Below are positions 2,344 to 20,281 of a DNA stretch of 64,000 nt, piece by piece. A program made the position numbers and the translations under genes. The stretch spans positions 77,897 through 141,896 of the forward strand of contig OZ220700.1 of assembly GCA_965116725.1 (NCBI GenBank), in the 5' to 3' direction. This DNA is from Thermodesulfobacteriota bacterium (GTDB taxonomy: Bacteria; Desulfobacterota_D; UBA1144; Nemesobacterales; Nemesobacteraceae). A model generated the notes under the pieces. That model did no database searches and was not told the origin of the DNA. It saw only the letters and a list, made by a program, of their open reading frames with translations. Every line of letters begins with the position of its first letter. Within the stretch, counting starts at the first letter, position 1.

Positions 2344-2676
2344 CAATCGCACAAACAGAAACTTTCACTTCGCGACTGGAGAACCTGCCTATCACGATTG
2401 ACTCTTCCACATGGAGGCAGTCATTTGCTCGGACCATGGTTTCTTGCCCGTTCTTATGGTATCAGCAGATACGACGCGGCCTATCTGGATCTTGCAGTCC
2501 GAGAATCCTTAACACTTGCTAGCTTGGACAGAACACTGGTAAAAGCGGCAGAGAAAGCAGGAGTAAGCATTTATCTTAAAGAAAGGGAAGGGCAAGTGCG
2601 TTATCTGTCTGGGAGTTTTCCGAGCGCTAAGCCTAAAGCAGCAAGAAAACTGATTTATTTCAGCAGACTACGATAA
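2344..2676 (+). pseudogene. PIN-domain (VapC-like) toxin remnant, C-terminal part only
   Basis: GISRYDAAYLDLAVRESLTLASLDRTLVKAAEKAGV resembles the C-terminal conserved block of PIN/VapC toxins. There is no N-terminal PIN half; a stop lies immediately upstream in frame, and the region is AT-rich. Confidence 0.4.
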
Positions 2677-2781
2677 GAAATTAATCTGTTTTCTCTCGAT
2701 ATTCTCTATCCCTTTATTTTACTCTTAAGCCTTGACATGACTCTTTTGATGATTAGTTTGAGAAATGGAGGTACATGCTAG

Positions 2782-3642
2782 ATGCAAACGGCAGTTGCAA
2801 CCTGCGATTCTCTTTCGGTTTTTATGCGGGAGATGGAAAAACATCCGCTTCTCTCAAAAGAGGAAGAGTACGTGCTTGCGGTCAGATATTACGAAAACGA
2901 AGATCTTGAAGCGGCCAATAAACTTGTGGTCTCAAACCTAAGATTCGTGGTGAGAATCGCTTCTGAGTACAAATCCTACGGTTTTCCAATGATGGACCTT
3001 GTTCAGGAAGGTTCGATAGGACTGATGCGAGCCATTCAGAAATTCAACCCCTACAAGGGATACAGGCTTATATCATATGCGGTGTGGTGGATCAGGGCAA
3101 GGATCCAGAACCATATAATGAAGTTCTGGAGCAACGTGAAGATCGGAACCACGCAGTCCCAGCGAAAGCTTTTCCAGAGGATAGAAGGAGCGAAGCGCAA
3201 GCTCGGGATAACTGCCGCTAGTATGGAAGATGACGACATAAGCCGTCTTGCGGACCATTTTGGCGTTAAGGAAGACGAAATCTCCCAGATGCAGGTCCGC
3301 GCTTCCAAAAGAGATCTTTCCCTCTCGGAGCGTCCCGCAGGGGAAGACTCCTCGGCCACTTACGGGGAACTGCTTCCTGACCCGTCGGATAACCAGGAAC
3401 AGGTGCTAAGCGAGTTCGGGTTCGACAGCCTTGCCAGGGAGAATCTGCACGAAGCTCTCAAGACGCTCTCAGAGAGGCAGAAAAAGGTGATAAACGAGAG
3501 GTATTTCACCGAACCTCCAAGAAAACTCCACGAAGTAGCCCGGGATCTCGGGGTTTCCCAGGAGAGGGTAAGGCAGATACAGGCCGAGTCCATAGGGAAA
3601 CTCAGGGGATACATGGCCGAAAAACTTGAAATTCACCCGTAA
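2782..3642 (+). CDS. rpoH: RNA polymerase sigma-32 factor (heat-shock sigma)
   Basis: Sigma-70 regions 2 to 4 are present. The RpoH-type segment W..VKIGTTQSQRKLF follows region 2.4. dnaK starts 26 nt downstream. Confidence 0.8.
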   Translation: MQTAVATCDSLSVFMREMEKHPLLSKEEEYVLAVRYYENEDLEAANKLVVSNLRFVVRIASEYKSYGFPMMDLVQEGSIGLMRAIQKFNPYKGYRLISYAVWWIRARIQNHIMKFWSNVKIGTTQSQRKLFQRIEGAKRKLGITAASMEDDDISRLADHFGVKEDEISQMQVRASKRDLSLSERPAGEDSSATYGELLPDPSDNQEQVLSEFGFDSLARENLHEALKTLSERQKKVINERYFTEPPRKLHEVARDLGVSQERVRQIQAESIGKLRGYMAEKLEIHP

Positions 3643-3668
3643 CAAGAAGAAAAATCAGGAGGAATTAA

Positions 3669-5591
3669 ATGGCTTCTAAGATAATAGGAATAGACCTTGG
3701 AACAACTAATTCATGCATAGCCATCGTTGAGGGCGGCGAACCGAAAGTGATAATCAACGAGGAAGGCACGAGAACGACCCCGTCGGTAGTCGCGTTTCTA
3801 AAAGGCGGAGAAGAGATTCTGGTCGGCGGACCGGCGAAGCGCCAGGCCGTGGCCAATCCCGAAAACACCGTCTACTCCACGAAAAGGCTTATGGGCAGAA
3901 GGTTCGAGGAGATATCGAGCGAAACTTACAGCCTTGCCTACAAGGTAGTGAAATCAGGCAAGTCGGACGCCTGGGTAGAGGTAGAGGGAAAAGAGTATTC
4001 TCCTCCGCAGGTCTCAGCGCACGTGCTCACGAAGCTTAGGAAGGCTGCCGAGGATTACTTGGGGTCTGAAGTCACTGAAGCCGTTATCACTGTTCCCGCG
4101 TATTTTAACGACAGCCAGCGCCAAGCCACAAAAGATGCCGGGAAAATAGCTGGCCTTGACGTAAAGCGCATAATAAACGAGCCGACCGCGGCAGCTTTGG
4201 CCTACGGGTTTGACAAGAAGAAAGAAGGCATGATAGTCGTCTACGACCTCGGAGGCGGAACTTTTGACGTATCGGTGCTTGAGGTCGGAAACAACGTTAT
4301 AGAGGTAAAGTCCACAAACGGCGATACCCATCTCGGCGGAGACGATTTTGACAAGAGGGTGATCGACTACATAATCTCCGAGTTCAAAAAGGATTCCGGG
4401 ATAGACCTCGGGGCGGACAAGATGGCCGTGCAGAGGCTGAGGGAAGCCGCCGAGAAAGCCAAGATCGAGCTTTCAAACACCGTCGAGACGGAAATTAACC
4501 TGCCGTTTATAACGGCCGATGCGAGCGGTCCAAAGCACCTTGTGATGAAGATAACGCGTTCAAAGTTCGAGCAGCTCATAGAAGATCTTATAAAAGGCAC
4601 GCTTAAGCCCTGCGAGCAGGCCCTTAAGGACGCCGGACTTCGCCCGGGCGAGATAGCCGAGGTAATACTGGTTGGCGGATCGACCAGGATCCCGCTTGTG
4701 CAGAAAGTCGTGACTGACTTTTTCGCAAAAGACCCGAGCAGGGGGATAAACCCCGACGAAGTGGTTGCCATGGGGGCCGCCATACAGGCGGGCGTGCTTG
4801 GAGGGGACGTAACCGATGTGCTCCTTCTCGACGTGATACCGCTCTCCTTGGGTATAGAAACCCTTGGAGGGGTCATGACCACTATAATCGAGAGAAACAC
4901 GACCATTCCCACGAAGAAAAGCCAGGTTTTTACCACAGCAGAAGATAACCAGAACTCGGTTGAGATCCACGTGCTGCAGGGGGAGAGGCAAATGGCTGCC
5001 GATAACAGGACGCTTGCTAGGTTCATCCTGTCGGGGATTCCCGCGGCTGCAAGAGGGATTCCGCAGATAGAGGTCACTTTCGACACGGACGCCGACGGAA
5101 TACTCCACGTATCCGCCAAGGACAACGCGACCCAGAAGGAGCAGAAGGTTAAGGTCGAGGCTTCAAGCGGGCTAAGCAGCGATGAGATCGACTCCATGGT
5201 CGAAGAAGCCGAGAAGATGTCCGAGAAGGACAAGGAGAAAAGCGAGCAGGTTCAGAAGAGAAACCAGCTTGACGAGCTTGTTTACAGGACCGACAAGAGC
5301 TTCCAGGAGCTTGGCGATGGTCTCTCCGAGGATGAGAAGAAGGATCTAGAGCAGGCCCTTGAAGAAGGAAGGGAAGCGCTTAAGTCGGATGATCCGACCA
5401 GAATTGACCAAGCGACAGAGAAAATAACCGCTGTTTCCCACAAGCTTGCGGAGCTTATGTATAAGAAACAGCAGGAAGAGGCTGCTGAACAGGGTGCCGG
5501 GGAGGGTGGACAGGAAGGTTCTGCGTCTGGGCAAGGAAATTCCACCTCGGGCGATGATGTTATAGACGCCGAGTTTACCGAGCAAAAGTAA
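3669..5591 (+). CDS. dnaK: Molecular chaperone DnaK (Hsp70)
   Basis: [18 protein letters not shown] and [10 protein letters not shown] are textbook Hsp70 signatures over the full length. An AGGAGG RBS is present. Confidence 0.97.
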
Positions 5592-5949
5592 GCCTCGAAT
5601 TCAATTCCTCCCCCTGTTTTTCATTGAGAGGGCATCGCTCTTCTAATCGGTAAAAAGAGTGCCGAAATAGTTTTGCTAGGGGAGTTATATATCTAGCTTC
5701 CCTAAACTAGACAATCTACTCAAATAAGTAAGGAGCTAGGGCTACGATTTGTCCATTGGGTAGAGAAACATTATAATTTAAAAGCTCGTTTCATCAAACG
5801 ACAAAAATGCTTCCATCACTCTTTTTGTGCTAATAACTTCGTATAATCAGTAATTATTTCTTTAAGTGGTACTCACAAATGTCACGTTAAATCCAATGAG
5901 CGACTTCTGATCTACGGAAGACTTGGTTTGATCACGAAATCAGGAGTAA

Positions 5950-6251
5950 TATCCCAAGAAATATAACAATGCCAACAGTCTCGGACTAAAGTTTCACCTC
6001 CACAGAAGAGATTTGCCGGATTCGCCGGACCTGATTTCCCCAAGGAGAAAAACAGCACTGTTTGTGCATGGATGTTTCTGGTACAGACGCAAGAATTGTT
6101 TGGGAGCAACGACTCCAAAAACCAACATTGAGTACTGGAACAACAAATTCAGGCACAATATGGAGCACGATAGGGAAAGCAGAAGAAAATTGAGCATAAC
6201 AGCTGGAAAGTCTTTGTGATATGGGGTGTGAAACAAAAACTAGGAAATTAA
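5950..6251 (+). pseudogene. vsr: Very-short-patch repair endonuclease (Vsr) remnant, N-terminally truncated and frameshifted
   Basis: LFVHGCFWYRRKNCLGATTPKTNIEYWNNKFRHNMEHDRESRRKL matches the Vsr core (FVDGCFWH ... PKTN.EFW ... RD). The expected C-terminal SWKVFVIWG block continues in the +1 frame after an A-run near 6180. The first roughly 30 residues are missing. Confidence 0.6.
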
Positions 6252-6311
6252 TAGAAGCTTTTTAAAGGAAAAACTTTTTAATCTAACTGTCAATTCTTCT
6301 ATACATCCCGC

Positions 6312-7901
6312 TTAGGTGCCCATTACCGCACCGGCTTCCATCATAATAGCCTCGATTTCGGGGCGCAATTTATTTGGTATCTCTGCTGCTTGGTTTATCT
6401 GAACATATTTGAAAGTGTTTAGATCAAACGGCACCCGGTCGTCACACTTGGCAGGTTCAAACAAGAAAATAAGGCGGTTCTTCTCGTGGTGCTTAAGGGC
6501 GAATCCCGCTTCGATATAGACATTGGGACGATGACCTGTAAGGTCGCAAACAATAATGTCAGAAGAAGCGATGGCCTCATACATTCTGGAATGAATGGGA
6601 AAAGTGCCGCCTTCCTCAGTTCCCATGTCGATCAGCTCAAGTCTCATACCATGAACTTGCTGAAAAGTATTGAGTGTTTGTTGAAGTTGTTGGAACCGTA
6701 ACACCGCTTTATCGTAGGCATTTTCCGGTGCATCCTGAGCCGGATACCAGCGGGCGAGAAAAACGCGATTGGGGATACGGGACTGTGCCACCTTGAAGGT
6801 TTCAAGTAACTGTTGTGCTGGAGAAATCGGATTCAACAAGTTGGTAATGCCATGGTCGCCTAGCCAATGGCCAATCCGATCAAGGCAATCCACTGTTCGG
6901 CGAACCTTCTTTTCGTGATCTTCCCCATTTTCTTCATGCCAGACTAGAGCAGCCAGTTCAAGGAAGCCATGCGTTTTGCAGAGAGAAGGATGGTTAACTT
7001 CCAACTGCGTAACGATATCGGATAATCCTGCAAACAAGTCATTTGCGAAACTAGTCAATGTTTGTCGATCTCGGGCGATAGCCGCATCCATGTTGATCAT
7101 GTTTCGAGCAGACTCCCACAAGGCAGTCAGTGGACGCTCACCGAATCGCCGCCTTGTCGGTTCCGGCAATCCCTTCAGTTGATTCGCCAGAAGTCGTGTC
7201 AAGTGCAGTTCTTTACTATAGGAAAACTCGTTGTCCGGTGTCATTGCATAATCTGGGTGCTGGCCGAGCAGCAGGTGCATTCCGTGTTCCGATTCTAACG
7301 GCAGCGCAGTGCTGTTGATGGTATGAAAGATCAGCGATTCCGAGAAATCGTCGGCGTCACTATCTGGTGGCCCAAGCAACACCATGCAAAATGGTGCAAG
7401 ATATTTTTGCGGAAGGTTCACGTCCTCCTGCAAATTTTCAGCAAACGCCAGCCGATGGTTTCCATCAATACGGCGGATGAGCTTATCCGCCTTAATTGCT
7501 TCCAATTCACTAGACTTCACCCGCAGTTTCTGAATACGGTGATTCTTTCCTGTGAAACGCCTTCCCATCCTGATGAGGCCATAGCCCTTTGTTTCAATAC
7601 CTACGGTTTCATTGTCAATCTGGATCGGCTCTCCTTCACAACGGACAGCGAGAATCACCTCTGGGATGAAGCGATTGTCACTGTATTCCAGATAGTTCTT
7701 AATATCTTCTGCGTGTTTAGCGTCAAGCTTGCGTTGGTGACCGTCTACTTGACCAGTCTGGTCACCAACAGTCATTTGATAGGGAACGGAAACCGCCGCC
7801 AGATCACGCAAGTCAGCAAAACCACGAATGATCTTGAAGATGCCGAGAACCCCTGCCGAAAACAGTCCTTCGAATTCGATGTATTGTCGTCGACGGGACA
7901 T
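6312..7901 (-). CDS. Fusion protein: DndB-like DGQHR (ParB/Srx-fold) domain N-terminally, nucleoside 2-deoxyribosyltransferase-like (NDT-like) domain C-terminally
   Basis: The N-terminal region carries a QR motif (GHQRKLDAKHAEDIKNYL), a DGxHR motif (IDGNHRLAF) and FHTINSTALPL, typical of DGQHR/DndB-like proteins. The C-terminus has DLTGHRPNVYIEAGFAL, the ExGxA catalytic block of NDT/DNPH1-like domains. The start lies 2 nt after the hsdS stop on the same strand. Confidence 0.55.
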   Translation of the reverse strand: MSRRRQYIEFEGLFSAGVLGIFKIIRGFADLRDLAAVSVPYQMTVGDQTGQVDGHQRKLDAKHAEDIKNYLEYSDNRFIPEVILAVRCEGEPIQIDNETVGIETKGYGLIRMGRRFTGKNHRIQKLRVKSSELEAIKADKLIRRIDGNHRLAFAENLQEDVNLPQKYLAPFCMVLLGPPDSDADDFSESLIFHTINSTALPLESEHGMHLLLGQHPDYAMTPDNEFSYSKELHLTRLLANQLKGLPEPTRRRFGERPLTALWESARNMINMDAAIARDRQTLTSFANDLFAGLSDIVTQLEVNHPSLCKTHGFLELAALVWHEENGEDHEKKVRRTVDCLDRIGHWLGDHGITNLLNPISPAQQLLETFKVAQSRIPNRVFLARWYPAQDAPENAYDKAVLRFQQLQQTLNTFQQVHGMRLELIDMGTEEGGTFPIHSRMYEAIASSDIIVCDLTGHRPNVYIEAGFALKHHEKNRLIFLFEPAKCDDRVPFDLNTFKYVQINQAAEIPNKLRPEIEAIMMEAGAVMGT

Positions 7902-7902
7902 A

Positions 7903-9234
7903 TCAACTTGCCCCTACAGGATGAATGCCGAGGATCATCTTTTCAATATCGGTTTCCCGGTCGATCAATGTACCGTTGGCAGCGCTGATGTTTTTCATTA
8001 TTTTTAGTCGGCGTTGTGCGAAATCTTGCTGAACAGCGCCAGATATTTCGGGAAGCCTGATCTCGGCTAAGTTCGCATAGTACATTCGTTGTTTCACACC
8101 GCCCACTCGGTTGAATGAAACAAGCGAGAGAAAATAGTCCGTCCGCAGCAAAAGCGCCATGAAATCAGGAAGAAAACCGTTTTTTATCCGCCATACTTGA
8201 TATTCTGGACTGGTAATCGCATCATTCGGTACATCCGGCACGATACCGAGGGAACCGACATTGGCGCGGGTCGGGTTATGGAAAAACCAGTCTTTCTCGA
8301 TCTTCTTGTATGACGCATTGAAATCCTTGCCCTTTTGTATAGAACTTAGGAAAATTCCTTCTTCATTGTTAACGCCATATATGAACCATTCCTTCTCAGG
8401 TTCCACCCAAGGTTTGACGGTTTCGGTACATTCCTCAGTATAATCGCCCAGCCGCACAAATTCAGGATTGGTGGAAATGAAAGCAGCTGCACGTCCGGCT
8501 TTTACATCCCATTGTGTAGCATTAGCGTAGTTGGCAAAAAAGACCCTGGAACGGGCGGTTTGACTAAAGGCGTGTGTTTGGTTTGCGAGATAAGTGTGAA
8601 GTTCAGAAACCAAATCCGATAAAGCCACTTCCGCTGCAAATAAATCTTGCCGCGCGGCCGCCCAGTACGCCTCAATCTGCCGCTGAACAGGTAGCGACGG
8701 GACAGGGACTCTAACTACTTCCAACTGTGCTGGTTGAATGCGCTTGCGCCCAGATGTCCCACTAACCATCGAATTTAGATATTTCTTAAACGCCACTGTT
8801 CTAAACAGGAGTCTTATATAGCCCGGAATCGCTTTATCTGTTTTTACTGAATAGACGGGAAACTCCGATGTGACACACATATTCTCAATATCGTCTGGCG
8901 CAAGGCCAATCGCGCCATTGCGTACATCGATCTTCGAGAAAACTACATCACCCGGATGCGCACGAAATAGTCTTCCCTTGATGTCTTTGATTTGAATGGG
9001 AACACGTGGTTCAATTGAACCGTCAAAGCGAATGGTGAGCAACGTGACCCTTGTCTCTGGAGATAGAGTGGCAAGTGCAGCTTCGCTCCTTCTTTCCAAT
9101 ATCTGATTCAATGGCTGGATGATTTCATCAGGCCAATTCCAATTGACAGAAAATTGGGCTGCTACAGACCAAGATGCCAGTTTTTGAAAAGCAACTGAGA
9201 AGGTTCTTGGGCGAAGTAGAGAATCCATACTCAT
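7903..9234 (-). CDS. hsdS: Type I restriction-modification specificity subunit (HsdS), two target-recognition domains
   Basis: A central conserved spacer LEVVRVPVPSLPVQRQIEAYW and a C-terminal conserved LPEISGAVQQDFAQRRLKIM repeat separate two variable TRDs. The start overlaps the methyltransferase stop as ATGA. Confidence 0.85.
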   Translation of the reverse strand: MSMDSLLRPRTFSVAFQKLASWSVAAQFSVNWNWPDEIIQPLNQILERRSEAALATLSPETRVTLLTIRFDGSIEPRVPIQIKDIKGRLFRAHPGDVVFSKIDVRNGAIGLAPDDIENMCVTSEFPVYSVKTDKAIPGYIRLLFRTVAFKKYLNSMVSGTSGRKRIQPAQLEVVRVPVPSLPVQRQIEAYWAAARQDLFAAEVALSDLVSELHTYLANQTHAFSQTARSRVFFANYANATQWDVKAGRAAAFISTNPEFVRLGDYTEECTETVKPWVEPEKEWFIYGVNNEEGIFLSSIQKGKDFNASYKKIEKDWFFHNPTRANVGSLGIVPDVPNDAITSPEYQVWRIKNGFLPDFMALLLRTDYFLSLVSFNRVGGVKQRMYYANLAEIRLPEISGAVQQDFAQRRLKIMKNISAANGTLIDRETDIEKMILGIHPVGAS

Positions 9235-11462
9235 TCTTGCGTGCCTATGATCATGGCGAAGGCCTCTGGGTCAGCCAGAAATTGCCGGTACCACTCCACA
9301 CACGTCTTTTCGATCTCCGGGGGCTGATTGGAATTCGGATAAAGCTCGTTCTGATCCTCCTCGCCGGTAGCAGAAATACCGACCTTTTCTGCTTCATACA
9401 TAAAAATAGGATAGTCGAAGCGTTCCTTGACAAGTTGCCTGGTTTCGGAATGTTTTCTAGCATCCATCTCTTTCGCGTAGTCCTTCAGTTTCTTTTGCAT
9501 GGTCTTACGCGTTTTGGCATCCCTGTTGTCTTTGGCTCGCTGAATAGCGGCTTCCAATAGTGCTTTTTTCGTTGCTATTTCCTCTGCGTACTTGTCTTCT
9601 ACCTCATCCGTGGCAGCAGCAAGGGTTGCGTCGAACCACTGTTGCTCTTGTTCGGTGAATTTCTTCAAAAAGAGCAGCGAACATTTTACACTGGCCCCAG
9701 AACTTATAAAAGTCTCCTCTGGAAGACTTACCACGGCGCGCAGAAAAGCACGGTCTTCGGTGAATTGACGCACGTAAGCCAGCGAGGGATTGTTGTAGAT
9801 ACCTTCGGGCAACACGATCCCCAATCGACCACCGGGTCTAAGCAGGTCAAGGCAACGTTCGATAAACAGTATTTCTGTCTTTATCTTCGCCCGGTTGCTT
9901 TTTGGCAGATCAAACAGGCTGGCAATGGGCTTGTTAAGTGCAGCCCTTACTCTGTCCTGAGCAGCGCGGTAAATATCCCCGTATTCGCTTATGTAGGACT
10001 GCTCTGCCACTGAGTTGACCGTAATATCGGTCTCAAGCACTCTATCGGAAGGTTCGACATTGGCACCGAAAGGCGGATTAGTCAGGATGATGTCAAAACG
10101 ACCCTCGAAGATACCATTGACGTTTAGAAAGCCATCGTGATGATGTACGCCCCCGTGCCCGTCACCGTGCATGATCATGTTCATCTTACTGGTACGCGCC
10201 ATCCTGTCATTGGCATCTGTTCCATAGATGCAGCGATTCGATAGGTTCCACAATCGGGAGCCTTCGCGCTGCTGGTCAATGGACGACTGAATTTCTGTAT
10301 ATTTATCCTGAAGCATTTTGGCTTTTTTTGCTGCGGGCAATGATTTTTTTACGTCAATGCCCTTTTTGTAGGTGTTATATTCCCGGTCGGCGTCTTCCAG
10401 TATTTTTTCCCGCACGAGTTCAAAAACACGGATTAAAAATCCACCTGAACCACTGGCGGGGTCACAGACAATTTCACCTTCTTGAGGATCGACCATGCGT
10501 ACCATGAATTCGACGATGGAGCGTGGAGTGAAAAACTGACCGATCTCTCCCCGAAATGTACGCCCAAGAAAGCGTTCAAAAGCAACACCCTTTACATCTT
10601 CGCTGGTATCGGAAAGGTTGTATTTCTCTAGCTTCCGAACAATCTCTTCACCGGTGGCTGGCCTCAAGTTGATGCGCTCTTCTTTCTCAAAAATCTTGTC
10701 ATTGGCGTAAGCGTTCTTTGTGTTTTGAAAAAGGGTATCTAGCGGATTTTCGGAAATCTGATCATGAAGCACATCAACAGTAAACAGATTCTTCCTATTA
10801 CGTCGGGTCAACAACTGCCGTTCCACATAGACTTTCGTGAACAACACTTTGGCGATCTCATCAAAAGCGGCCGCCGGGTCCTTCTTTTCTCTGTTACGAA
10901 TGATGTTGTGGCACTGGTGTAATAGATCGGCGAATTCTTTTTCCTTGAAGGCGCGCAATTTGGAGAATAATTCAGTAATATCACTGTCCGAAGCATCACC
11001 ATGCGGAATATTTTCGATTTCCTCAGTGTAACCGGGCAGTTTATCTTTTATTATTCGCCAGTATTTTGTTTCCCGCGAATTATGGGTAACAAAAAAGGGT
11101 GCGCCACAGATACGCGCATAATTTTCGCCCTGATTGTAATCCTGAGCTTTGATCGTGACGTTATCGGATTTGCATTCGACAATAATAAAGGGAGCGTTAT
11201 TGTCCGCTTTATCCTGTTGCGTCCGCCATATGACGAAATCCGCTCTAGCCCCGGCACTACCCGGACCGGTCAGATCTAGTTCCTCCGATATTTGGGCGGG
11301 TGTGAAACCATATTCGTTGATCAGTATCAATAAGTAATTTTGTCGTACGGTCTCTTCGGGGGTTTCAACTAACCATTTACTGCGAATGTAGCTCCAGATT
11401 TGTCCTTTTGACTCGTCTCGTTTGATATTTAAGGCACTCATATCTCGGTGTTTCCTTTGCAA
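9231..11462 (-). CDS. Gamma-class N6-adenine DNA methyltransferase (HsdM-like) with an N-terminal HsdR_N-type PD-(D/E)xK domain
   Basis: Motif X/I (QFFTPRSIVEFMV ... DPASGSGGFL) and motif IV (ILTNPPFG) are present. Residues about 60 to 130 (ADFVIW ... FIIVECKSDN ... QGENYA) resemble the HsdR N-terminal restriction-endonuclease-like domain. Confidence 0.85.
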   Translation of the reverse strand: MQRKHRDMSALNIKRDESKGQIWSYIRSKWLVETPEETVRQNYLLILINEYGFTPAQISEELDLTGPGSAGARADFVIWRTQQDKADNNAPFIIVECKSDNVTIKAQDYNQGENYARICGAPFFVTHNSRETKYWRIIKDKLPGYTEEIENIPHGDASDSDITELFSKLRAFKEKEFADLLHQCHNIIRNREKKDPAAAFDEIAKVLFTKVYVERQLLTRRNRKNLFTVDVLHDQISENPLDTLFQNTKNAYANDKIFEKEERINLRPATGEEIVRKLEKYNLSDTSEDVKGVAFERFLGRTFRGEIGQFFTPRSIVEFMVRMVDPQEGEIVCDPASGSGGFLIRVFELVREKILEDADREYNTYKKGIDVKKSLPAAKKAKMLQDKYTEIQSSIDQQREGSRLWNLSNRCIYGTDANDRMARTSKMNMIMHGDGHGGVHHHDGFLNVNGIFEGRFDIILTNPPFGANVEPSDRVLETDITVNSVAEQSYISEYGDIYRAAQDRVRAALNKPIASLFDLPKSNRAKIKTEILFIERCLDLLRPGGRLGIVLPEGIYNNPSLAYVRQFTEDRAFLRAVVSLPEETFISSGASVKCSLLFLKKFTEQEQQWFDATLAAATDEVEDKYAEEIATKKALLEAAIQRAKDNRDAKTRKTMQKKLKDYAKEMDARKHSETRQLVKERFDYPIFMYEAEKVGISATGEEDQNELYPNSNQPPEIEKTCVEWYRQFLADPEAFAMIIGTQE

Positions 11463-11530
11463 ACTAAGCTATCTTGGACAACCTCTTCTGAAAAGGTCGT
11501 GGTTTCTTGTTTTATTCTATTGCCCTGCTT

Positions 11531-11557
11531 GTCATTGGTTGGTGTCGTACCAATGAC
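11531..11557. promoter_or_regulatory. Perfect 9-bp inverted repeat (GTCATTGGT n9 ACCAATGAC) upstream of the methyltransferase operon start
   Basis: Seen directly in the sequence. It lies about 70 to 95 bp upstream of the start codon of the 9231..11462 gene, on the promoter side. A second palindrome CACGGGTACCCCGTG is at about 11600. Confidence 0.3.
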
Positions 11558-12308
11558 CCGTATCGCATAGTCAATATTCGTGTACCTGTTTCGATTTCGC
11601 CACGGGTACCCCGTGTTCGTTGCAATGGGAATTATATACAATCCTACACAAAACTTTGAATTTCTCCCTGTAAGACCTTAACTCTCACTCTTGTTTTAGG
11701 TGATATTTTACACAAATAGAGAGAATGATTAAGAAGAGTTAGAAATGTCTAAGAAGAAACGTAAAACCCTTGGGAAGTCAGACGGAGAGGGGATAGAATT
11801 GAGAAACTGTTTTAACTCTTTCCGACTGAGGAAGCGACGGTGAAGTAGTTTGAGGAAAGACGCTGGCCAATACGTACAAACAACGGTGACAGCCGATTAA
11901 AGCCCGGCGAATACCTTTTAGAATCTGGCTCTCCAGATTCAGGTTCATATAATTTTCTGGATCCATATCGACTCGACTTCGTGCTCTTTGTCGTACTTAA
12001 AATGAAAGGACAAAGAACATTACACAAGAGCTCGCTAGCTGGACATAGCTGTTAGGTTATTTGGGCCGGCCGAAAATATCGGATCAGAAAGCTACGCTGG
12101 AAAGGCTTACTAAGAAGTTCGAACATGAAAAAGAAAAACCAAACTAAGAAAACTCGAGACCGGCCAGTCAAGAACTTAAGCAAGCCTACCAATGCCTCAC
12201 CAGAAGAAACAGCTAAAGCAATATCTCTGCCGGCGGAAAAGAAGCTAGAAGTCTCAAAGAAAATCAAGAACTAAGAGTCTGGTAGAATTGTATATAATTT
12301 CCAATCCA

Positions 12309-12575
12309 TTAGATGAAATGTTTGGTCCATATCCAAATTTCAGCAGTAATACACGCTCTGAGCTTCTGCCGTAACTTCTCTGGTGTCTCCCAAACAATAC
12401 GATTGTATTGGCGTGTGTCGAAACGGATTTTCTCTATTACATCTCTACAAGTAAATATCACCGGAATATTGAGTCCATGAGCAAAGTCCGCTTCGTAGTA
12501 GACACCCTATACTGGGTTCTCACTCCTCAGTTGCTAAAGGCTCCGGTCCATAAGTAATTTCCTTAGATTCTCCTT
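12309..12575 (-). pseudogene. Decayed paralog of the NDT-like domain (remnant with in-frame stops)
   Basis: Minus-strand translation gives LRSENPV*GVYYEADFAHGLNIPVIFTCRDVIEKIRFDTRQYNRIVWETPEKLRQKLRA. This aligns with the C-terminus of the 6312..7901 protein (DLTGHRPNVYIEAGFALKHHEKNRLIFLF ... VPFDLNTFKYVQ ... PNKLRPEIEA). It is interrupted by TAG stops and has no start. Confidence 0.4.
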
Positions 12576-13116
12576 CTCCTATCTCCCAGCATTGACGAAA
12601 TCTTTCTAAACGATCCGAGCTGAAGCGAGCCTCATATAAGCGAGTAGAGCGGGTTGCTACGACTGAAAATTGGAAGGATTCATCACGTGCCAAGGAATTC
12701 ATTTTCTCGACCATTTCTTCTTCGTTGGTATCCCACAGTTCTATGTCTCTCGCGTTGCCTCCTTTGTTGTCGATTATCCAGATCCACCAATTCTCGTGTG
12801 AATCGATTCGAAGAGTGAGATGGGGTATGATATCCCGTGAGTCTGCTTTCTGTAACAATTCAGTCTGCTTGCCGAGCTGATCTCGCGTAAGCGATAACTC
12901 CTTGCGCTGAAGGCGGAGTTCTTTGGACTGCAGGAAATACCCGTATACCAGCCAAAGGAAAGCTAGAGGTGTGAAGAGACCTGCAAGAAAGTCTCCCAAC
13001 TCGCTAAGGTTGCCTGCCTTTAAGAGCTCCCATGCATCGTTACTGCGGAAAAAGAGAATGGCGACAATGTAGAGAATACTCAGGCCAACTATTATCCAGG
13101 AATTAGAAAACTTCAT
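12520..13116 (-). CDS. Hypothetical membrane protein (two predicted N-terminal TM helices, coiled-coil-like middle)
   Basis: Hydrophobic stretches WIIVGLSILYIVAILFF and LAGLFTPLAFLWLVYGYFL. It is AT-rich. Its 3' end overlaps the NDT-like remnant in another frame, so it may be the decayed N-terminal half of one former gene. Confidence 0.4.
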   Translation of the reverse strand: MKFSNSWIIVGLSILYIVAILFFRSNDAWELLKAGNLSELGDFLAGLFTPLAFLWLVYGYFLQSKELRLQRKELSLTRDQLGKQTELLQKADSRDIIPHLTLRIDSHENWWIWIIDNKGGNARDIELWDTNEEEMVEKMNSLARDESFQFSVVATRSTRLYEARFSSDRLERFRQCWEIGEGESKEITYGPEPLATEE

Positions 13117-13454
13117 TCTTCCGCCTTCCGCGTGTCCTACTCCGGAACTTTTGGGGTTCAGGGTTTCCCTCAGAAGTCGCTAGCAGATTTCGCCGCATAC
13201 TCTATAGTAATAGAATTTACTGAATGATTAACAGGAATCAATAGAAATTATGCCAACCCCTGTTTGCCGCTTCTAGCATTGAAGAAAGAGTGGTCAAACC
13301 ATTTTTGCAGCCATACTTGGGTTTCCTCGAAATAGTTCCGCTCCAGTAGTGATATTTTCCCCCCTGCGGTTAAAATGATTTTCCGAATCCAGGCTTTCGC
13401 TTCAGCTCCAAAGCACCGTTTTGAGCGTCTGAGGCCGGGTTCCGGATTACAAGG

Positions 13455-13477
13455 GCAACATGGTTTTTCCATGTTGC
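13455..13477. promoter_or_regulatory. Perfect palindrome GCAACATGG-TTTTT-CCATGTTGC about 45 bp upstream of aceE
   Basis: A 9-bp inverted repeat with a 5-nt spacer read directly in the sequence. Its position fits an operator or leader hairpin for the pyruvate dehydrogenase operon. Confidence 0.35.
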
Positions 13478-13520
13478 AAATTTCCCCTGCGGCCCCGTTT
13501 CGCCGCGTTTTGCATGGGTA

Positions 13521-16190
13521 ATGGAAGAAGATTCTCAAATTTCGGAAGAAGAAGTTGAAGATCGGGAATGGATCGAGTCACTTGAATACGTGATCGAGAA
13601 CTCCGGCCGCGAGAGGGCAACCGAACTGCTCCGAAAGCTCAGGATATACTCCCAGAAAAAAGGCGTACAGGTTCCCTACGCCGCGAACACCCCCTACGTG
13701 AACACCATTTCCCTCGAGGACCAGCCGCCTTACCCCGGCAACTACGAAATAGAGCGCAACATAAGAAGCATCATAAGGTGGAACGCCATGGCCATGGTCG
13801 TGCGCGCAAACAGGATAAGCGACGGCATCGGCGGACATATATCGACCTACGCCTCGGCCGCGACGCTCTACGAGATAGGGTTCCACCATTTCTTCAGGGC
13901 AGGCGACGAGGGCCGGGAAGGGGACATGATCTACTTCCAGGGACACGCCTCGCCGGGCATATACGCAAGGGCCTTTCTCGAAGGCACGGTCTCTATCGAG
14001 CAGATGCGCAATTTCAGGAGGGAGCTCGGCGGAGACGGCCTTTCTTCCTATCCCCACCCCTGGCTCATGCCGGACTTCTGGGAGTTCCCGACGGTCTCGA
14101 TGGGACTTTCTCCCATAATGGCGATTTACCAGGCCCGTTTCAACAGATACCTCGAGGACAGGGGCCTAAAGCCCAGGACCGACGCCAAGGTGTGGGCCTT
14201 TATCGGGGACGGGGAAACCGACGAGCCTGAGACCCTGGGAGCCATCACCCTCGCGTCGAGGGAAAAGCTCGACAACCTGATATTCGTGGTTAACTGCAAC
14301 CTCCAGCGCCTTGACGGCCCCGTCAGGGGAAACGGCAAGATAATACAGGAGCTTGAGAGAATCTTCAGAGGGGCGGGGTGGAACGTGATAAAGGTTGTCT
14401 GGGGAGGAACCTGGGATCCGATCCTGGCGCAGGATAAAGACGGCTTTCTGGTCGAGAGGATGGAAGCGGCCCTTGACGGGGATTACCAGAGGTACACCAT
14501 TTCTCCCGGGAAATACATAAGGGAGCATTTTTTCGGCACCCGCCCTGAAATCCTGAAGATGGTCGAGGACCACGCGGACGAGCAGCTTGAGAAGCTCGCA
14601 AGAGGAGGCCACGACTCAGAGAAGGTCTACGCCGCCTACAAGGCCGCGGTTGAGAACACCGGTTCTCCCACGGTGATTCTCGCAAAGACCATAAAGGGTT
14701 ACGGTCTCGGGGAAGCGGGGGAGGGGAAGAACATAACCCACCAGCAGAAAAAACTTAACGAAGAGGAACTCAAGCGCTTCCGGACCCGCTTCTACATACC
14801 GATTACGGACCAGGAAATCAGAAGAGCTCCCTTCTACAGGCCTGCTCCCGACAGCCCCGAGATGAAGTATCTGCGCGAGAGAAGGAAGGCACTCGGCGGA
14901 CCCGTCCCGAAGCGGACCGTACGGGCAAAGCCGCTTCGGAAGATTCCGGAACGGGTGTTCGAGGACTTCAAAAAGGCCTCGGGTCCCAAGAGGAAAGTGG
15001 CCACTACCATGGTGATCGTCCACATGCTCTCAAGACTCATGCGGGACAGGGACATAGGAGATCTGATAGTGCCCATAGTCCCCGACGAGGCGAGAACTTT
15101 CGGAATGGAGGCGCTTTTCCGCCAGGTGGGCATCTATTCAAGCGTGGGACAGCTCTACGAACCCGTTGACGCTGACACCCTCCTTTACTACAAGGAGGCA
15201 AAGGACGGGCAGATACTCGAAGAAGGCATAACCGAGGCGGGCAGCATGTCCTCCTTCATAGCTGCCGGCACGGCCTACTCGACACACGGCATAAACACCA
15301 TTCCCTTTTTCATTTACTACTCGATGTTCGGCTTTCAGAGAATAGGGGATCTTATCTGGGCCGCCGCCGACATGAAGTGCAGGGGTTTCATGGTGGGAGG
15401 CACGGCGGGGCGGACCACCCTTGCGGGCGAAGGTCTTCAGCACCAGGACGGAAACAGCCATCATTTCGCCTACGCCTATCCGAACCTAAAGGCCTACGAT
15501 CCTGCTTTCTCCTACGAGATAGCCGTGATAGTCAGGGACGGGATAAAGAGGATGTACCAGGACGGGGAGGAGATATTCTACTACATAACGGTGATGAACG
15601 AGCGCTACGTGCAGCCCGCCATGCCGGAAGGGGTCGAGGAAGGTATAATAAAGGGGATGTACAGGTTCGCGTCTTCTGAGCCCAAGAACTCGGGGAAAAA
15701 GGTCCATCTTTTCGGAAGCGGCGCCATCATGAACGAGGTTCTCTGGGCGAGGGAGGTTCTTGAGAGCGGCTACGGCGTCCCGACCGACGTCTGGAGCATC
15801 ACGAGCTACAAGGAGCTTTACCAGGACGCGAAAGAGGCGGAAAGATGGAACCGCCTAAATCCCGGCGAGAAGAGAAGAAAGAGCTATATTTCAGAGTGCA
15901 TGGAAGGGGAAGACGGGATATTTGTTGCCGCGACCGACTATCTTAAGAGCCTTCCCGATTCCGTTTCCTCCTATTTTCCCAAGCCCCTTGTCTCTTTAGG
16001 CACCGACGGGTTCGGAAGAAGCGACACTCGGGAGGCGCTTCGCGACTTCTTCGAGGTTGACTACCGCCACATCGCGATTGCGGCGCTCCATGAGCTTGCT
16101 AGGGAAGGCAGGATTGACGAAGAGACCGTTAGCGAGGCGATAAGCGAGTTTGGAATCGACCGGGGGAAGCCCAACCCCGCGGTCACGTGA
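13521..16190 (+). CDS. aceE: Pyruvate dehydrogenase E1 component, homodimeric type
   Basis: Full-length AceE-like sequence (ISTYASAATLYEIGFHHFF ... GHASPGIYARAFLEG) of about 890 aa. Confidence 0.95.
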   Translation: MEEDSQISEEEVEDREWIESLEYVIENSGRERATELLRKLRIYSQKKGVQVPYAANTPYVNTISLEDQPPYPGNYEIERNIRSIIRWNAMAMVVRANRISDGIGGHISTYASAATLYEIGFHHFFRAGDEGREGDMIYFQGHASPGIYARAFLEGTVSIEQMRNFRRELGGDGLSSYPHPWLMPDFWEFPTVSMGLSPIMAIYQARFNRYLEDRGLKPRTDAKVWAFIGDGETDEPETLGAITLASREKLDNLIFVVNCNLQRLDGPVRGNGKIIQELERIFRGAGWNVIKVVWGGTWDPILAQDKDGFLVERMEAALDGDYQRYTISPGKYIREHFFGTRPEILKMVEDHADEQLEKLARGGHDSEKVYAAYKAAVENTGSPTVILAKTIKGYGLGEAGEGKNITHQQKKLNEEELKRFRTRFYIPITDQEIRRAPFYRPAPDSPEMKYLRERRKALGGPVPKRTVRAKPLRKIPERVFEDFKKASGPKRKVATTMVIVHMLSRLMRDRDIGDLIVPIVPDEARTFGMEALFRQVGIYSSVGQLYEPVDADTLLYYKEAKDGQILEEGITEAGSMSSFIAAGTAYSTHGINTIPFFIYYSMFGFQRIGDLIWAAADMKCRGFMVGGTAGRTTLAGEGLQHQDGNSHHFAYAYPNLKAYDPAFSYEIAVIVRDGIKRMYQDGEEIFYYITVMNERYVQPAMPEGVEEGIIKGMYRFASSEPKNSGKKVHLFGSGAIMNEVLWAREVLESGYGVPTDVWSITSYKELYQDAKEAERWNRLNPGEKRRKSYISECMEGEDGIFVAATDYLKSLPDSVSSYFPKPLVSLGTDGFGRSDTREALRDFFEVDYRHIAIAALHELAREGRIDEETVSEAISEFGIDRGKPNPAVT

Positions 16191-16203
16191 CGAGGAACGT
16201 AAG

Positions 16204-17499
16204 TTGATAGAATTCAGGCTTCCCGAACTTGGAGAAGGAATTGAATCCGGACAGGTGATAGAGGTTTTCGTTTCGCCCGGAGACAGGGTCACTCTCGAAC
16301 AGCCCCTGCTTGAAGTGGAAACGGACAAGGCCGCCGTTGAGATTCCTTCCCCGGCAGACGGAACAATTGTCGACGTGTGCGTAAGTGCCGGGGACACGGT
16401 GGAAATAAGCCAGGTGCTCGTGAGAATGAACGGGGACGATGAGGGCAGAGAACCCCCGAAGGATGCTCCCGCGGTCGCAGAAGAGGAAAAACCCGCCGCG
16501 CCGCAAGCGCCCCTCCCTGAAAAAGAACCCGAAGAAAAGAAAAAACAGACCACACCACCCGAAAGCGCGCCCGCGGACGATATCGCCCCGCCTGGACCTC
16601 TAGCGGTGGCGGCAGCGCCTTCCGTGAGACGTCTTGCGAGGGAGCTAGGCGTAGAGCTTTCATCCGTTTCGGGAACGGGTCCCCGAGGGAGGATACTTGA
16701 GAGGGACGTAAAGGTTCACGCAAAGGCCATAATAAAGTCTGCGTCTTCCGCTCCGGCGGCGCCCGAGGAACCCGAGCTTCCCGATTTTTCAAGATGGGGA
16801 GAAACAGTTACCGAGAGTTTCTCGACCGTGAGGAAGCTTACGGCCGAGCGCCTCACCCAGGCGTGGGCGGCCCCGCACGTAACGCAGTTTGACAAGGCGG
16901 ACGCCACGCGGCTTGAAGATCTCAGAAAACTTAACAGGGACAAGGTGTCAGAAGCCGGGGGGAACCTTACCGTAACCGCGATTCTGGTAAAGGCCCTTTC
17001 CCTGGCGCTTTCTGAGTTCCCGAAGTTTAATTCAAGCATACATATGGGCAGCCGCACGATCGTTTACAAGAAATACATAAACATCGGGGTCGCGGTGGAT
17101 ACGGAAAGAGGACTTCTTGTTCCGGTGATAAGGGATGTCGACAAAAAAGACATAACGCAGATATCGGTTGAGTTAACGGAGATCTCTTCTGCGGCTAGGG
17201 AGAAAAAGCTCTCTCCTGACAGGCTCAAGGGGGGAAGTTTCACCATAACCAACCTCGGGGGAATAGGGGGGACCTTCTTTACCCCGATTCTAAATCCCCC
17301 CGAAGTCGCCATACTGGGAGTCTCAAGGTCCTCCTTTGAGCCCGCGTATGTTGACGGGGAGTTTACGCCGAGGTTCATGCTCCCGCTTTCGCTTTCCTAC
17401 GATCACAGGATTATAGATGGGGCGGAAGCCGCCAGGTTCCTCAGGTGGCTATGCGAGATGCTTGAGCGCTCTCCCGAGAGCATATTCGAAGGGGTGTAG
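16204..17499 (+). CDS. aceF: Dihydrolipoamide acetyltransferase (E2) of the pyruvate dehydrogenase complex
   Basis: Lipoyl domain EVETDKAAVEIPSP, an Ala/Pro-rich linker, and a catalytic DHRIIDGAEAARFL block. The start is probably the TTG at 16204 after GAGGAA. The track ORF from 16150 overlaps aceE. Confidence 0.88.
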   Translation: MIEFRLPELGEGIESGQVIEVFVSPGDRVTLEQPLLEVETDKAAVEIPSPADGTIVDVCVSAGDTVEISQVLVRMNGDDEGREPPKDAPAVAEEEKPAAPQAPLPEKEPEEKKKQTTPPESAPADDIAPPGPLAVAAAPSVRRLARELGVELSSVSGTGPRGRILERDVKVHAKAIIKSASSAPAAPEEPELPDFSRWGETVTESFSTVRKLTAERLTQAWAAPHVTQFDKADATRLEDLRKLNRDKVSEAGGNLTVTAILVKALSLALSEFPKFNSSIHMGSRTIVYKKYINIGVAVDTERGLLVPVIRDVDKKDITQISVELTEISSAAREKKLSPDRLKGGSFTITNLGGIGGTFFTPILNPPEVAILGVSRSSFEPAYVDGEFTPRFMLPLSLSYDHRIIDGAEAARFLRWLCEMLERSPESIFEGV

Positions 17500-17505
17500 C
17501 AGGCG

Positions 17506-18939
17506 ATGGCGAGAGTGGCAACGGAAGTGGCGGTAATAGGAGCGGGTCCCGGGGGATATCCCGCGGCGTTTGCCCTTGCCGACAAGGGAAAGAAAGTAAC
17601 GCTTATAGATCCTGAGCTAAACCCCGGAGGAGTCTGTCTCTACAGGGGATGCATACCTTCAAAGGCTCTTTTGCACGCGGCGAAGGTGGCCGAGGAGGCA
17701 AGGGACGCGGCGGATTTCGGTCTTAGCTACGGGGAACCGGAGATCGACCCCCAGAAGCTTTTTTCGTGGAAAGACGAGGTGGTCTCCAAGCTAACGGGCG
17801 GGCTCAGGACGCTTGTTCGGGCCAGAAAAGTAAATTACCTGCGGGGAAGGGCGTCTTTTACCTCTTCCGGCACCCTTCGTGTCGTAACGGCTTCCGGCGA
17901 GGAGAGGGAAGTAGTGTTCGAAAACGCCGTTATCTCCACGGGTTCTGTCTCGAGGAGAATCCCGGGAGTGGATTTCAGCTCCCCGAACGAGGTCGATTCA
18001 GACGGCGCTCTCTCCATGGGAGAGATTCCGAAGAGCCTGCTTGTGGTTGGCGGAGGTTACATAGGCCTTGAGCTTGGAACGTTTTTTTCCTCTCTGGGTA
18101 CCGAGGTCACGGTTGTAGAGATGCTCCCCGGACTCATCCAGGGAGTTGACAGGGATCTTGCGGCGGTCCTTAAAAAGAGGCTCGACCGGAAATTCCGCTC
18201 CATAATGCTTGAAACAAAGTTAATTTCTATAAGTGAGTTAGACAACGAAGTTCAAGTTTCATTCGAAGCCGATGGGAAAAGCTTTCAGGAAAGATACGAA
18301 AAGGTTCTGATCTCGGTCGGAAGGGTGCCGAACACGGAAGGTCTCGGCCTCGAGAACACTCGGGTCGAGGTAGACGGCAAGGGCTTTATAGAGACGGACT
18401 CCCAGAGAAGAACGGCCGACCCGGCGATTTTTGCAATCGGGGATGTCGCCGGAGAACCCATGCTTGCCCACAAGGCGACGTATGAAGCCAAGATCGTGGC
18501 CGAGGTTATAACCGGAGCCAAGACCCAGTACGACCCCAGGGCCGTTCCGGCGGTAATCTTTACCGATCCCGAAATCGCCTGGTGCGGAGTCACCGAAAGC
18601 GAGGCCAGGGAGGCGGGGATGGAAGTGAATGTGTCCAAGTTTCCGTGGGCGGCCTCGGGCAGGGCCCTTACGCTTAACAGGACCGATGGCCTGACGAAGC
18701 TCATAACCGATAAGGGGACCGGGAGGGTGATCGGCGTCGGAATTGTCGGATCGCAGGCGGGGGAACTCATATCGGAATCCGTACTGGCAATTGAAATGGG
18801 CGCGACTGCTGAGGATATAGCTTTTTCAATACATCCTCACCCGACCCTGACCGAGACCATTATGGAGGCGGCAGAAGGCATATACGGGGCAAGCACCCAC
18901 ATTATGAAAAGGCGTCCGAGAAAAGCTTCACGGAAGTGA
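17506..18939 (+). CDS. lpdA: Dihydrolipoyl dehydrogenase (E3)
   Basis: FAD-binding VIGAGPGGYPAAF and redox-active GGVCLYRGCIPSKALL. A pyridine nucleotide-disulfide oxidoreductase over the full length. Confidence 0.93.
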   Translation: MARVATEVAVIGAGPGGYPAAFALADKGKKVTLIDPELNPGGVCLYRGCIPSKALLHAAKVAEEARDAADFGLSYGEPEIDPQKLFSWKDEVVSKLTGGLRTLVRARKVNYLRGRASFTSSGTLRVVTASGEEREVVFENAVISTGSVSRRIPGVDFSSPNEVDSDGALSMGEIPKSLLVVGGGYIGLELGTFFSSLGTEVTVVEMLPGLIQGVDRDLAAVLKKRLDRKFRSIMLETKLISISELDNEVQVSFEADGKSFQERYEKVLISVGRVPNTEGLGLENTRVEVDGKGFIETDSQRRTADPAIFAIGDVAGEPMLAHKATYEAKIVAEVITGAKTQYDPRAVPAVIFTDPEIAWCGVTESEAREAGMEVNVSKFPWAASGRALTLNRTDGLTKLITDKGTGRVIGVGIVGSQAGELISESVLAIEMGATAEDIAFSIHPHPTLTETIMEAAEGIYGASTHIMKRRPRKASRK

Positions 18940-19250
18940 CAAAGTAATATTTGGACTGTTCAAACCTTCTTTTGTTTCCGGATTCATCTCTATAGCAATA
19001 CCTTTCTGAAGTCTGGTTGCGGGGATTATCTGCAACAAAGATGTTAATCAGGACCGCGCAGCGCCAGCCGGGAACAGGCTGTTTTTCCTGCTCTTCCATG
19101 ATATAGTTATGACTGTTCGTAGCTAAAAAGGCGGAAACCTTCCTTTTATGCGGAGGGTGCTCCGACTGCAGGGATAAAAAGAGTTTCTGGACCTTGGTAC
19201 AACTTGAAGACGGCTCTTGATAGCGTCTGGAAATAAGGAGGTTTTTTGTT

Positions 19251-19922
19251 ATGCAATTTCGAATTTTGGGACTTTTGTTCTTGGCGTTGCCCTTGGTAGC
19301 GTTGGTACAGGCTTGCGGAGATGATGACTCTGTCCCCACTATGGAAACGGAAAGGGGAGAACCGATGGGAATGCGGGGATTCTACCTTAGCGTAAACCAA
19401 AATCACGAGATAGACTGCGGTGTTGAAGACGCCTACGTGTACTTGACCGAGACGGAATCCGAGGGAATTTTTGATGTTGAGATTGCGTCTACCAGTGAGC
19501 GTTTTCCGGATTTCACTTATAAGGGGATCAAGACCGTCCGGGGTGATAAAGAGACCTTGGCGGTTTCCTACGTAATCGAATCCCAGGGAAGGGATCCCGC
19601 CCCGGGAATCTACTATCTGGAATCGAGAACCGATTCAGCTATCAGCGAAAAAACGATTTTTACCGGCTACTGGTCGGGCAATGCCGTCCGTCCGGAGAGT
19701 ATGCCCCTTGTGACCTGTCCGTATGTGCTTGTACCCAGAGACGCGATAGGCGAGGGCGGCTGCGGCGGCGCCGGTGAGGGGGAAATGGCCGAGGGTTTGA
19801 AAAAGTATCTCGGTAAAGGTCCTTCGGGCGGATCTCGAGGCGTGGAGCTCGGAACCTGCTACAGCCCGATAACAGCCGACGGGAAATCAACGCCAGGAGA
19901 TATCTCTTTCGGCAATTATTAA
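19251..19922 (+). CDS. Hypothetical lipoprotein
   Basis: Signal peptide with a lipobox (LVALVQACG). No recognisable domain. Confidence 0.5.
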   Translation: MQFRILGLLFLALPLVALVQACGDDDSVPTMETERGEPMGMRGFYLSVNQNHEIDCGVEDAYVYLTETESEGIFDVEIASTSERFPDFTYKGIKTVRGDKETLAVSYVIESQGRDPAPGIYYLESRTDSAISEKTIFTGYWSGNAVRPESMPLVTCPYVLVPRDAIGEGGCGGAGEGEMAEGLKKYLGKGPSGGSRGVELGTCYSPITADGKSTPGDISFGNY

Positions 19923-19930
19923 AACGGAAG

Positions 19931-20281
19931 ATGATTGAAATTGAGTTAAGTGGCTGGAGCGACGGACGCCCTGATTGGGGCGGCTCGCTTTTCGGATTCG
20001 GATTAAGAGTAAGCATGAAAGACCGGGAGATTTTCCGAAAATACTCAACAATAAAGCTCGAATTACCGCGCCCTGCGGGGAAGTTTTACAGACTCGAAGT
20101 AGCCATTACACCGTCTTTCTGGCGCAAGTGTCCCGAGCTTAGACACAAGAAGATCGGGGAGTGGATGTGGGAACGGGGAGATTGTCTGCCCGAGGCGGCT
20201 TCCCCATGGCCGGACGGCAAGGGTCGGCCGCCGAGATATAAGGCCGAGGTTAGAAAGAATTACGTGCGCGTGATTGGCTGA
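19931..20281 (+). CDS. Hypothetical protein
   Basis: An ORF of coding-like composition that follows the lipoprotein gene closely. No motif recognised. Confidence 0.4.
   Translation: MIEIELSGWSDGRPDWGGSLFGFGLRVSMKDREIFRKYSTIKLELPRPAGKFYRLEVAITPSFWRKCPELRHKKIGEWMWERGDCLPEAASPWPDGKGRPPRYKAEVRKNYVRVIG

Follow-up and report, generated by a model that had tools for sequence, protein, structure and literature searches.

A decayed 3' remnant of an NDT/TIR-like gene, probably a deletion or replacement scar, behind an unrelated membrane-protein gene in a Thermodesulfobacteriota defense island

Membrane-anchored effectors exist in signaling defense systems. Among the described systems that employ a nucleoside 2-deoxyribosyltransferase (NDT) domain are the type II retrons (Retron-Eco1/Ec86, Sen2), whose effectors have the NDT domain at the N terminus and a DNA-binding winged helix at the C terminus and need a reverse transcriptase (RT) and a non-coding RNA (ncRNA) (PMC7736814). 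Activated Retron-Eco1 (Ec86) depletes adenine and its derivatives (bioRxiv 10.1101/2023.08.16.553469). Here we describe a short minus-strand segment, 12299..12509, within 64,000 nucleotides (nt) of a Thermodesulfobacteriota bacterium (contig OZ220700.1, positions 77,897 to 141,896), the whole of which is called the window. An earlier note made from the sequence alone had taken the segment for a second, pseudogenized copy of the C-terminal NDT-like module of a 529 amino acid (aa) protein encoded nearby, and possibly for part of a former membrane-anchored effector. We consider it very likely that the segment is instead the dead 3' stub of a gene from a widespread family of ~320-330 aa proteins, hereafter the parent family, lying behind a gene for an unrelated 198-aa protein with two transmembrane (TM) helices, the 2-TM gene. 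Related loci carry numbers with the prefix L, and the features on which the argument depends are as follows.

12520..13116, minus strand: intact 198-aa 2-TM gene, a full-length member of a large phrog_9267-like family
12509..12519, minus strand: the 11 bases 3' of the 2-TM stop codon (GAACCCAGTAT), from the downstream sequences of 10 loci set side by side and a DNA alignment
12507..12509, minus strand: in-frame TAG, the first codon of the stub; TGG in L005, L008 and L009, and a Gly codon in the intact family
12336..12506, minus strand: main body of the NDT/TIR-like stub, GVYYEADFAHGLNIPVIFTCR-DVIEKIRFDTRQYNRIVWETPEKLRQKLRACITAEI, equivalent to parent residues ~262-319 of ~328 (66-123 of the 132-aa domain)
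12299..12335, minus strand: frameshifted tail of the stub, from a DNA alignment with L008/L009 and the tail of protein P0130
6342..6662, minus strand: C-terminal TIR/NDT-like domain (~residues 414-520) of the 529-aa DGQHR protein, a distant homolog used as a comparator only

A search of 5.8 billion proteins with the stub returned 36 matches, mostly of ~125-140 aa with a few shorter fragments, some of which were labeled nucleoside 2-deoxyribosyltransferase; the best had an E value of 8.5e-21 and 77% identity (P0121). From this first search a stand-alone protein of ~132 aa was considered as the parent, and this was rejected, since most of the copies surveyed afterwards are ~325 aa long. The survey was based on a scan of metagenome contigs that found at least 549 relatives, 80 loci of which were kept. 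In these loci the frame usually extends past 'MWFD', where the short forms start, by ~190-270 codons on the upstream side if the contig is long enough, and the proteins are then ~320-330 aa long; genuinely short forms are few (L063, L064). The proteins begin with a conserved domain of ~195 aa (CPIWGTPA...SPRAGGxY...LTSWL; parent-family loci L019-L098, for example L020 3413..4399), continue through a ...GYARLAEL... segment and reach the strand ...QAFVAMWFD, which opens a C-terminal domain of the NDT/TIR fold; in divergent members the N-terminal domain is replaced by CxxC...CxxC zinc-ribbon-like starts.

The parent matches phrog_16139 at 5.5e-50, and some short forms of the family were labeled 'nucleoside 2-deoxyribosyltransferase' by JGI. 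A PADLOC scan, which covered the parent family and the 529-aa protein and not the stub itself, gave a match of the family to PDLC00733 ('Effector, TIR') at 5.2e-10. The closest named classes in Pfam are PF05014 (NDT / MilB / DNPH1) and PF10137 (CAP12-PCTIR_TIR), with full-length parents scoring 23.3 and 24.3 against PF05014, below its gathering threshold of 28.8 bits, and a sequence search of the PDB with the parent protein returned nothing meaningful. Fold and profile comparisons put the parent domain in an NDT/TIR-like class (PF05014-type or PF10137/PDLC00733) but do not separate TIR from NDT, and by analogy the intact parent may be a nucleotide- or NAD-directed N-glycosidase-type effector. 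Its neighborhoods are of the defense type: the gene has a ~1000-aa N6_N4 methylase on one side and a UvrD-like helicase on the other in L020-L022 and L027, adjoins DUF1156 and HEPN-DUF499 proteins in L029, and adjoins a Type ISP enzyme in L032. None of the 80 loci contained a 2-TM protein. Two further associations were considered and rejected. Had the ~700-aa gene downstream of the parent-family genes been the counterpart of the window's 743-aa methyltransferase (MTase), the stub would have belonged to the operon of the latter; it proved to be a UvrD-like helicase with no similarity to the MTase, and no matches were found for a DUF5677-like gene as a conserved partner of the family.

When 21 full-length relatives were compared with the window by tblastn, they matched only 12336..12506, that is, parent residues ~262-319, at 48-71% identity, and no N-terminal piece of the parent gene was found with them anywhere in the 64 kb. 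Over these residues the stub is 59-77% identical to the ~325-aa family, including the YYEAGFAHGLNIPVIFTCR and HFDTRQYNHI motifs. It retains ~18% of the parent, roughly the second half of the catalytic-type fold. A complete open reading frame (ORF) of the family comprises an N-terminal domain and an entire C-terminal domain of ~130 aa; the stub lacks the former and also the first half of the alpha/beta TIR/NDT flavodoxin-like fold, so that neither ORF nor fold is complete. Pfam gave no match to the stub fragment at E <= 1. A glutamate that is invariant in 27 intact proteins (E70) is kept in the stub (YYEADF), next to an Asp at the likewise invariant G72; judged by motif position only, E70 would correspond to the catalytic nucleophile of NDT, a Glu in the turn between strand and helix.

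The minus-strand frame over this region reads ...SL*QLRSENPV*GVYYEADFAHGLNIPVIFTCRDVIEKIRFDTRQYNRIVWETPEKLRQKLRACITAEIWIWTKHFI*, its part ...NPV*GVYYEADFAHGLNIPVIFTCRDVIEKIRFDTRQYNRIVWETPEKLRQKLRACITAEIWIWTKHFI* coming directly behind the TGA of the 2-TM gene, in another frame. All of the sequence strings quoted in the earlier note are present in it, and its view of a pseudogenized NDT/TIR-like fragment adjoining a 2-TM gene agrees with the family match and with the lesions described below. The extent that it gave (12309..12575) was too large, as homology runs only from 12506 to 12336 and the part read as NDT-like at 12510..12575 is the 3' end of the 2-TM gene in another frame. Likewise, of the two in-frame TAG codons it had counted, that at 12507..12509 belongs to the stub, and that at 12534..12536 falls in non-homologous sequence.

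The stub carries lesions of five kinds. A nonsense change has turned TGG, the codon before GVYY in the three relatives L005, L008 and L009, into TAG. One codon has been deleted after FTCR, as seen in both DNA and protein alignments, and an extra T at ~12335 shifts the frame; the earlier note had overlooked both of these. The 1-nt insertion takes the true tail, GDGPN... (here GYGPNISSNGLE, 12299..12334), out of the stub's frame, so that the stub has lost it and ends in an apparent 'WIWTKHFI*', which is out-of-frame sequence. Finally, substitutions have reached conserved positions, namely G72D, noted above, and H94R, H102R and R118C at positions conserved in at least 90% of the intact proteins. 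The differences between the window stub and that of L008 are spread evenly over the codon positions (6/7/9). L005 is syntenic with the window, its flanks being 93-97% identical, yet its stub goes no further than 'VIFTC' and gives way to unrelated sequence: between two blocks of that identity, 439 bp of the window (11987..12425; the distal stub and ~300 bp with no recognizable gene) and 228 bp of L005 (805..1032) are unrelated segments.

The 529-aa protein (6312..7901) does not account for the stub. By BLASTP the two share 20 identities in 58 positions (34%) with 3 gaps, at an E value of 0.006 for the single comparison. The Smith-Waterman score of 43 (z = 3.7) was reached by 19 of 2000 shuffled sequences and is barely higher than what the window's other 173 long ORFs give, the next best of which score 40 and 39. 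The pairwise similarity that had prompted the idea of a duplicated module is marginal, also under shuffling. At the level of profiles the homology holds: hhalign of the stub-family alignment against the 529-aa C terminus gave 95% probability, an E value of 2.7e-8 and 32% identity, the 529-aa protein matches PDLC00733 at 1.2e-9 over the same profile region as the parent family, and three parent-family members (L092, L098, L068) match window 6342..6596 by tblastn with E values of ~1e-5 to 2e-6. The two segments thus belong to one domain superfamily and are not copies of one module. Their relationship is real but distant, and the 529-aa protein is neither the source nor a recent duplicate of the stub, which is far closer to the separate ~325-aa family (59-77% versus 32-34% identity). 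The 529-aa protein also differs from the stub's parent in its DGQHR (DndB/DpdB-like) N terminus and in being a member of an operon with an MTase and a specificity (S) subunit.

The 198-aa ORF at 12520..13116 does have two N-terminal hydrophobic helices. The protein consists of a 2-TM hairpin (~residues 6-23 and 40-62), a long helix to ~94 and a C-terminal eight-strand Ig-like beta-sandwich (100-186); the AlphaFold model (pLDDT 77) places helices at 3-34 and 37-94 and the eight strands at 100-186. We found 276 homologs (E <= 0.01) of ~200 aa each that span ~100% of the ORF, and a profile search of 1.84 billion representatives gave 5881 clusters at E <= 1e-3, the best 150 of which had a median length of 227 aa. 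Members of the family are typically 200-270 aa long and share a near-invariant motif, LNE[LK]GDFLAGxFxPLAFxWLVYGY, and the window protein aligns with it over the full length, including the invariant LxELGDFxxGxFxPLxF motif. Among PHROGs it matches phrog_9267 (E 2.2e-14), as do homologs from Acinetobacter and Undibacterium (~1e-30). Pfam, NCBIfam and PADLOC assigned it to no family (none at E <= 0.1 in PADLOC), a PDB search with the 2-TM profile returned nothing meaningful, and none of 270 sampled family members gave a match to the NDT profile better than E = 0.76. For the TM/helix half the ratio of non-synonymous to synonymous change (dN/dS) comes to 0.07-0.29 and for the sandwich half to 0.29-0.92, values involving L006 being unusable and left aside; the gene is under purifying selection. 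The 198-aa ORF is an intact, full-length gene of a family unrelated to NDT, an outcome that the earlier note had itself named as one that would refute its reading.

The L006 copy of the 2-TM gene (7884..8489) is full length by tblastn at 87% identity, yet gene calling gave it only 162 aa; an internal stop is probable, and the copy may itself be decaying.

The close relatives of the 2-TM locus come from Candidatus Dadabacteria-like genomes. All of the close 2-TM loci share 11 nt after the stop codon (GAACTCAGTAT) with a breakpoint directly 3', and beyond it one of two states follows. In the window, L005, L008 and L009 the stub begins at the same parent residue with an identical junction. In L001-L004, L006 and L010 there is a conserved spacer of ~50 nt, AACGAGTAAAGTGATCCTGCCATTGGCAATTTTATTTCCCCC, with a near-palindrome, TGCCATTGGCA (L001 6610-6670, L004 6601-6660, L006 8490-8550, L010 5607-5660). 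The spacer is a candidate for a site of protein binding or recombination at the edge of the island. In a 2-TM gene tree built from the window, L001, L003-L006 and L008-L012, the stub loci do not form one group: the window and L005 have a spacer locus, L006, as their sister, L008 and L009 have the spacer loci L001 and L003 in that position, and the outgroups, too, have the spacer. Since stub and spacer loci interleave in this way, the junction state was therefore exchanged by recombination between lineages. The defense genes around the 2-TM gene differ among the related contigs (SIR2 with DUF87, AbiJ, an OLD-like ATPase, nSTAND, Type ISP, Dcm/Vsr, toxin-antitoxin) and usually lie near sigma70/dnaK. 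The 2-TM gene is a conserved flank, or anchor, of a variable, recombining defense island near sigma70/dnaK.

Taken together, we regard it as highly probable that the locus is a deletion or replacement scar, which placed the 3' end of a defense-island gene behind an unrelated membrane-protein gene and has been decaying since. A deletion or cassette replacement would have removed the parent's first ~260 codons, plus whatever lay upstream of them, and would have fused codon ~262 to the DNA 11 nt past the stop of the intact 2-TM gene. The stub has since acquired its nonsense codon, codon deletion, frameshift and substitutions at conserved positions; in L005, the closest relative, its distal half has gone with a further deletion, and the DNA 3' of the resident 2-TM gene is exchanged by recombination. 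The event was presumably a deletion and not some other form of illegitimate recombination, and the stub presumably lacks function. Several points weigh against this account. The presumed ancestral locus, a 2-TM gene followed by a complete parent gene, was not recovered, so that the deletion is inferred and not observed. In L008 and L009 the stub is still an ATG-initiated ORF of 71 aa. The Nei-Gojobori dN/dS of the stub (window versus L008) is 0.35, which taken alone hints at residual constraint, and this value is based on tiny counts (8.5 synonymous and 12.5 non-synonymous changes), for which the Fisher p varies over 0.02-0.08 with the rounding of the fractional counts.

The best surviving alternative, though an unlikely one, reverses the history and has a mobile 2-TM cassette inserting into a resident NDT-like gene or replacing its 5' part. 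It would accord with the phage and mobile-element association of the 2-TM family (phrog_9267), with the varied contexts in which the gene occurs and with the swapping of the junction state between lineages. Against it, the 5' remnant of the parent that would be expected upstream of the 2-TM gene is absent from the window, L008 and L009, neither flanking repeats nor an integrase were seen at the 2-TM gene, and a scan of window 1-20000 for a tRNA integration site found none. Moreover, the 2-TM gene lies near sigma70/dnaK in several Dadabacteria-like contigs, as a resident flank would.

Less probable still is that the stub has been retained for a function, either as a micro-protein of 50-71 aa, for example a decoy or dominant-negative partner of NDT/TIR-like effectors, or as a 3'-untranslated or regulatory element of the 2-TM gene. 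We likewise give very little credence to the more specific proposal of a functional half-domain micro-protein that modulates NDT/TIR-like effectors such as the 529-aa protein or acts as a partner of the 2-TM protein. Co-inheritance of the stub with the 2-TM gene in four loci would be in keeping with a function, as would the intact ATG ORF of L008 and L009 and the dN/dS value given above. However, the overall divergence is modest, with a synonymous divergence (dS) of ~0.26-0.30, and because it is so low a neutral stub would be expected to persist. The stub has also suffered different damage in the window (TAG, frameshift) and in L005 (distal half deleted), its differences are uniform over codon positions, sister loci do entirely without it, and as half of an alpha/beta fold it would probably not be stable alone.

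Least credible, and in our estimation next to impossible, is the proposal in the earlier note that the 198-aa ORF and the fragment arose when a frameshift broke up a single ancestral protein, which had two TM helices at its N terminus and an NDT-like effector domain at its C terminus: the two do adjoin on the same strand, the stub-bearing frame does overlap the 3' end of the 2-TM ORF and membrane-anchored effectors do occur in signaling defense systems, but homology begins only past the 2-TM stop codon, at parent residue ~262, and a frameshift cannot explain the stub because ~260 parent residues are missing; the 198-aa ORF turned out to be a full-length member of an unrelated family when set against its 276 homologs and 5881 representative clusters, its C-terminal part is a beta-sandwich and not the missing N-terminal half of an NDT fold, and the parent, of ~325 aa, has a non-membrane N-terminal domain, with intact TM-NDT fusions found neither among the 270 sampled 2-TM family members, by the NDT-profile limit already given, nor in the 80 parent loci.

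The remaining features of the island are listed below.

12292..12309, minus strand: candidate vestige (MDWKLY) of the start of a DUF5677-like gene, a weak assignment
6312..11462, minus strand: three-gene operon of a 743-aa HSDR_N_2 + N6_Mtase protein, a 443-aa type I S subunit and the 529-aa protein
6013..6219, plus strand: 68-aa ORF, a 5'-truncated Vsr stub with a PF03852 match

On the minus strand the order is 2-TM gene, stub, ~850 bp without a recognizable gene, 743-aa MTase, 443-aa S subunit, 529-aa protein and Vsr fragment. Just past the Vsr fragment, towards lower coordinates, the plus strand carries dnaK and a sigma-70 gene; past the 2-TM gene, towards higher coordinates, it carries aceE. 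The Vsr ORF matches only positions 46-70 of the 74-position PF03852 profile (E 3.6e-7), which makes it the second stub of this island to have lost the 5' part of its gene; near the 2-TM gene of L006 there is an intact pair of Vsr and Dcm genes. A DUF5677-like gene comes after the 2-TM gene in L001-L003, and the first 20 codons of such a gene come after the stub in L009. Pfam gave no match for two small ORFs, 12052..12267 and 11812..12027, that lie between the stub and the MTase gene, or for the one at 13248..13538, Rfam at a permissive threshold found no RNA family in window 5000-14000, and a scan for promoters and terminators near the junction yielded nothing informative. The operon at 6312..11462 is an unusual restriction-modification-like module: no HsdR-type helicase/nuclease ORF was seen, and the operon is kept at 97% DNA identity in L005.

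Decayed stubs at the edges of defense islands are commonplace, and this one represents ordinary gene decay with no plausible activity, so the locus should be counted neither as a TM-anchored NDT effector nor as a duplicated effector module. The analysis did bring out two uncharacterized families as by-products. One is the widespread ~325-aa family, with an NDT/TIR-like domain often encoded beside methyltransferases, UvrD-like helicases, DUF1156/DUF499 or Type ISP proteins. The other is the very large 2-TM and beta-sandwich family, which marks a recombining island boundary in Dadabacteria-like genomes. The 2-TM gene stands among defense genes in every Dadabacteria-like locus examined, and the family is associated with phages and mobile elements; it is possible that it represents an undescribed single-gene membrane defense or exclusion effector.

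In comparison with the known systems, the parent family resembles the type II retron effectors in that it, too, joins an NDT-like domain to a second domain. The order of the domains is the opposite, however, with the NDT-like domain at the C terminus; the main ORFs near the stub include none of RT size, and, as stated above, Rfam is empty in 5000-14000. A retron type II effector was rejected as the stub's parent on the grounds of this reversed domain order and the lack of an RT or ncRNA. The neighbors of the 2-TM gene are the MTase, the S subunit, the DGQHR-TIR-like protein and aceE, with no signal-generating enzyme (CD-NTase, cyclase or SMODS) beside it. Like the TM effectors of CBASS, Pycsar and SLATT systems, the 198-aa protein has an N-terminal 2-TM hairpin and is encoded in a defense island; it differs from them in matching none of the profiles, in standing alone in varied contexts, and in carrying a beta-sandwich rather than a nucleotide-sensor domain.

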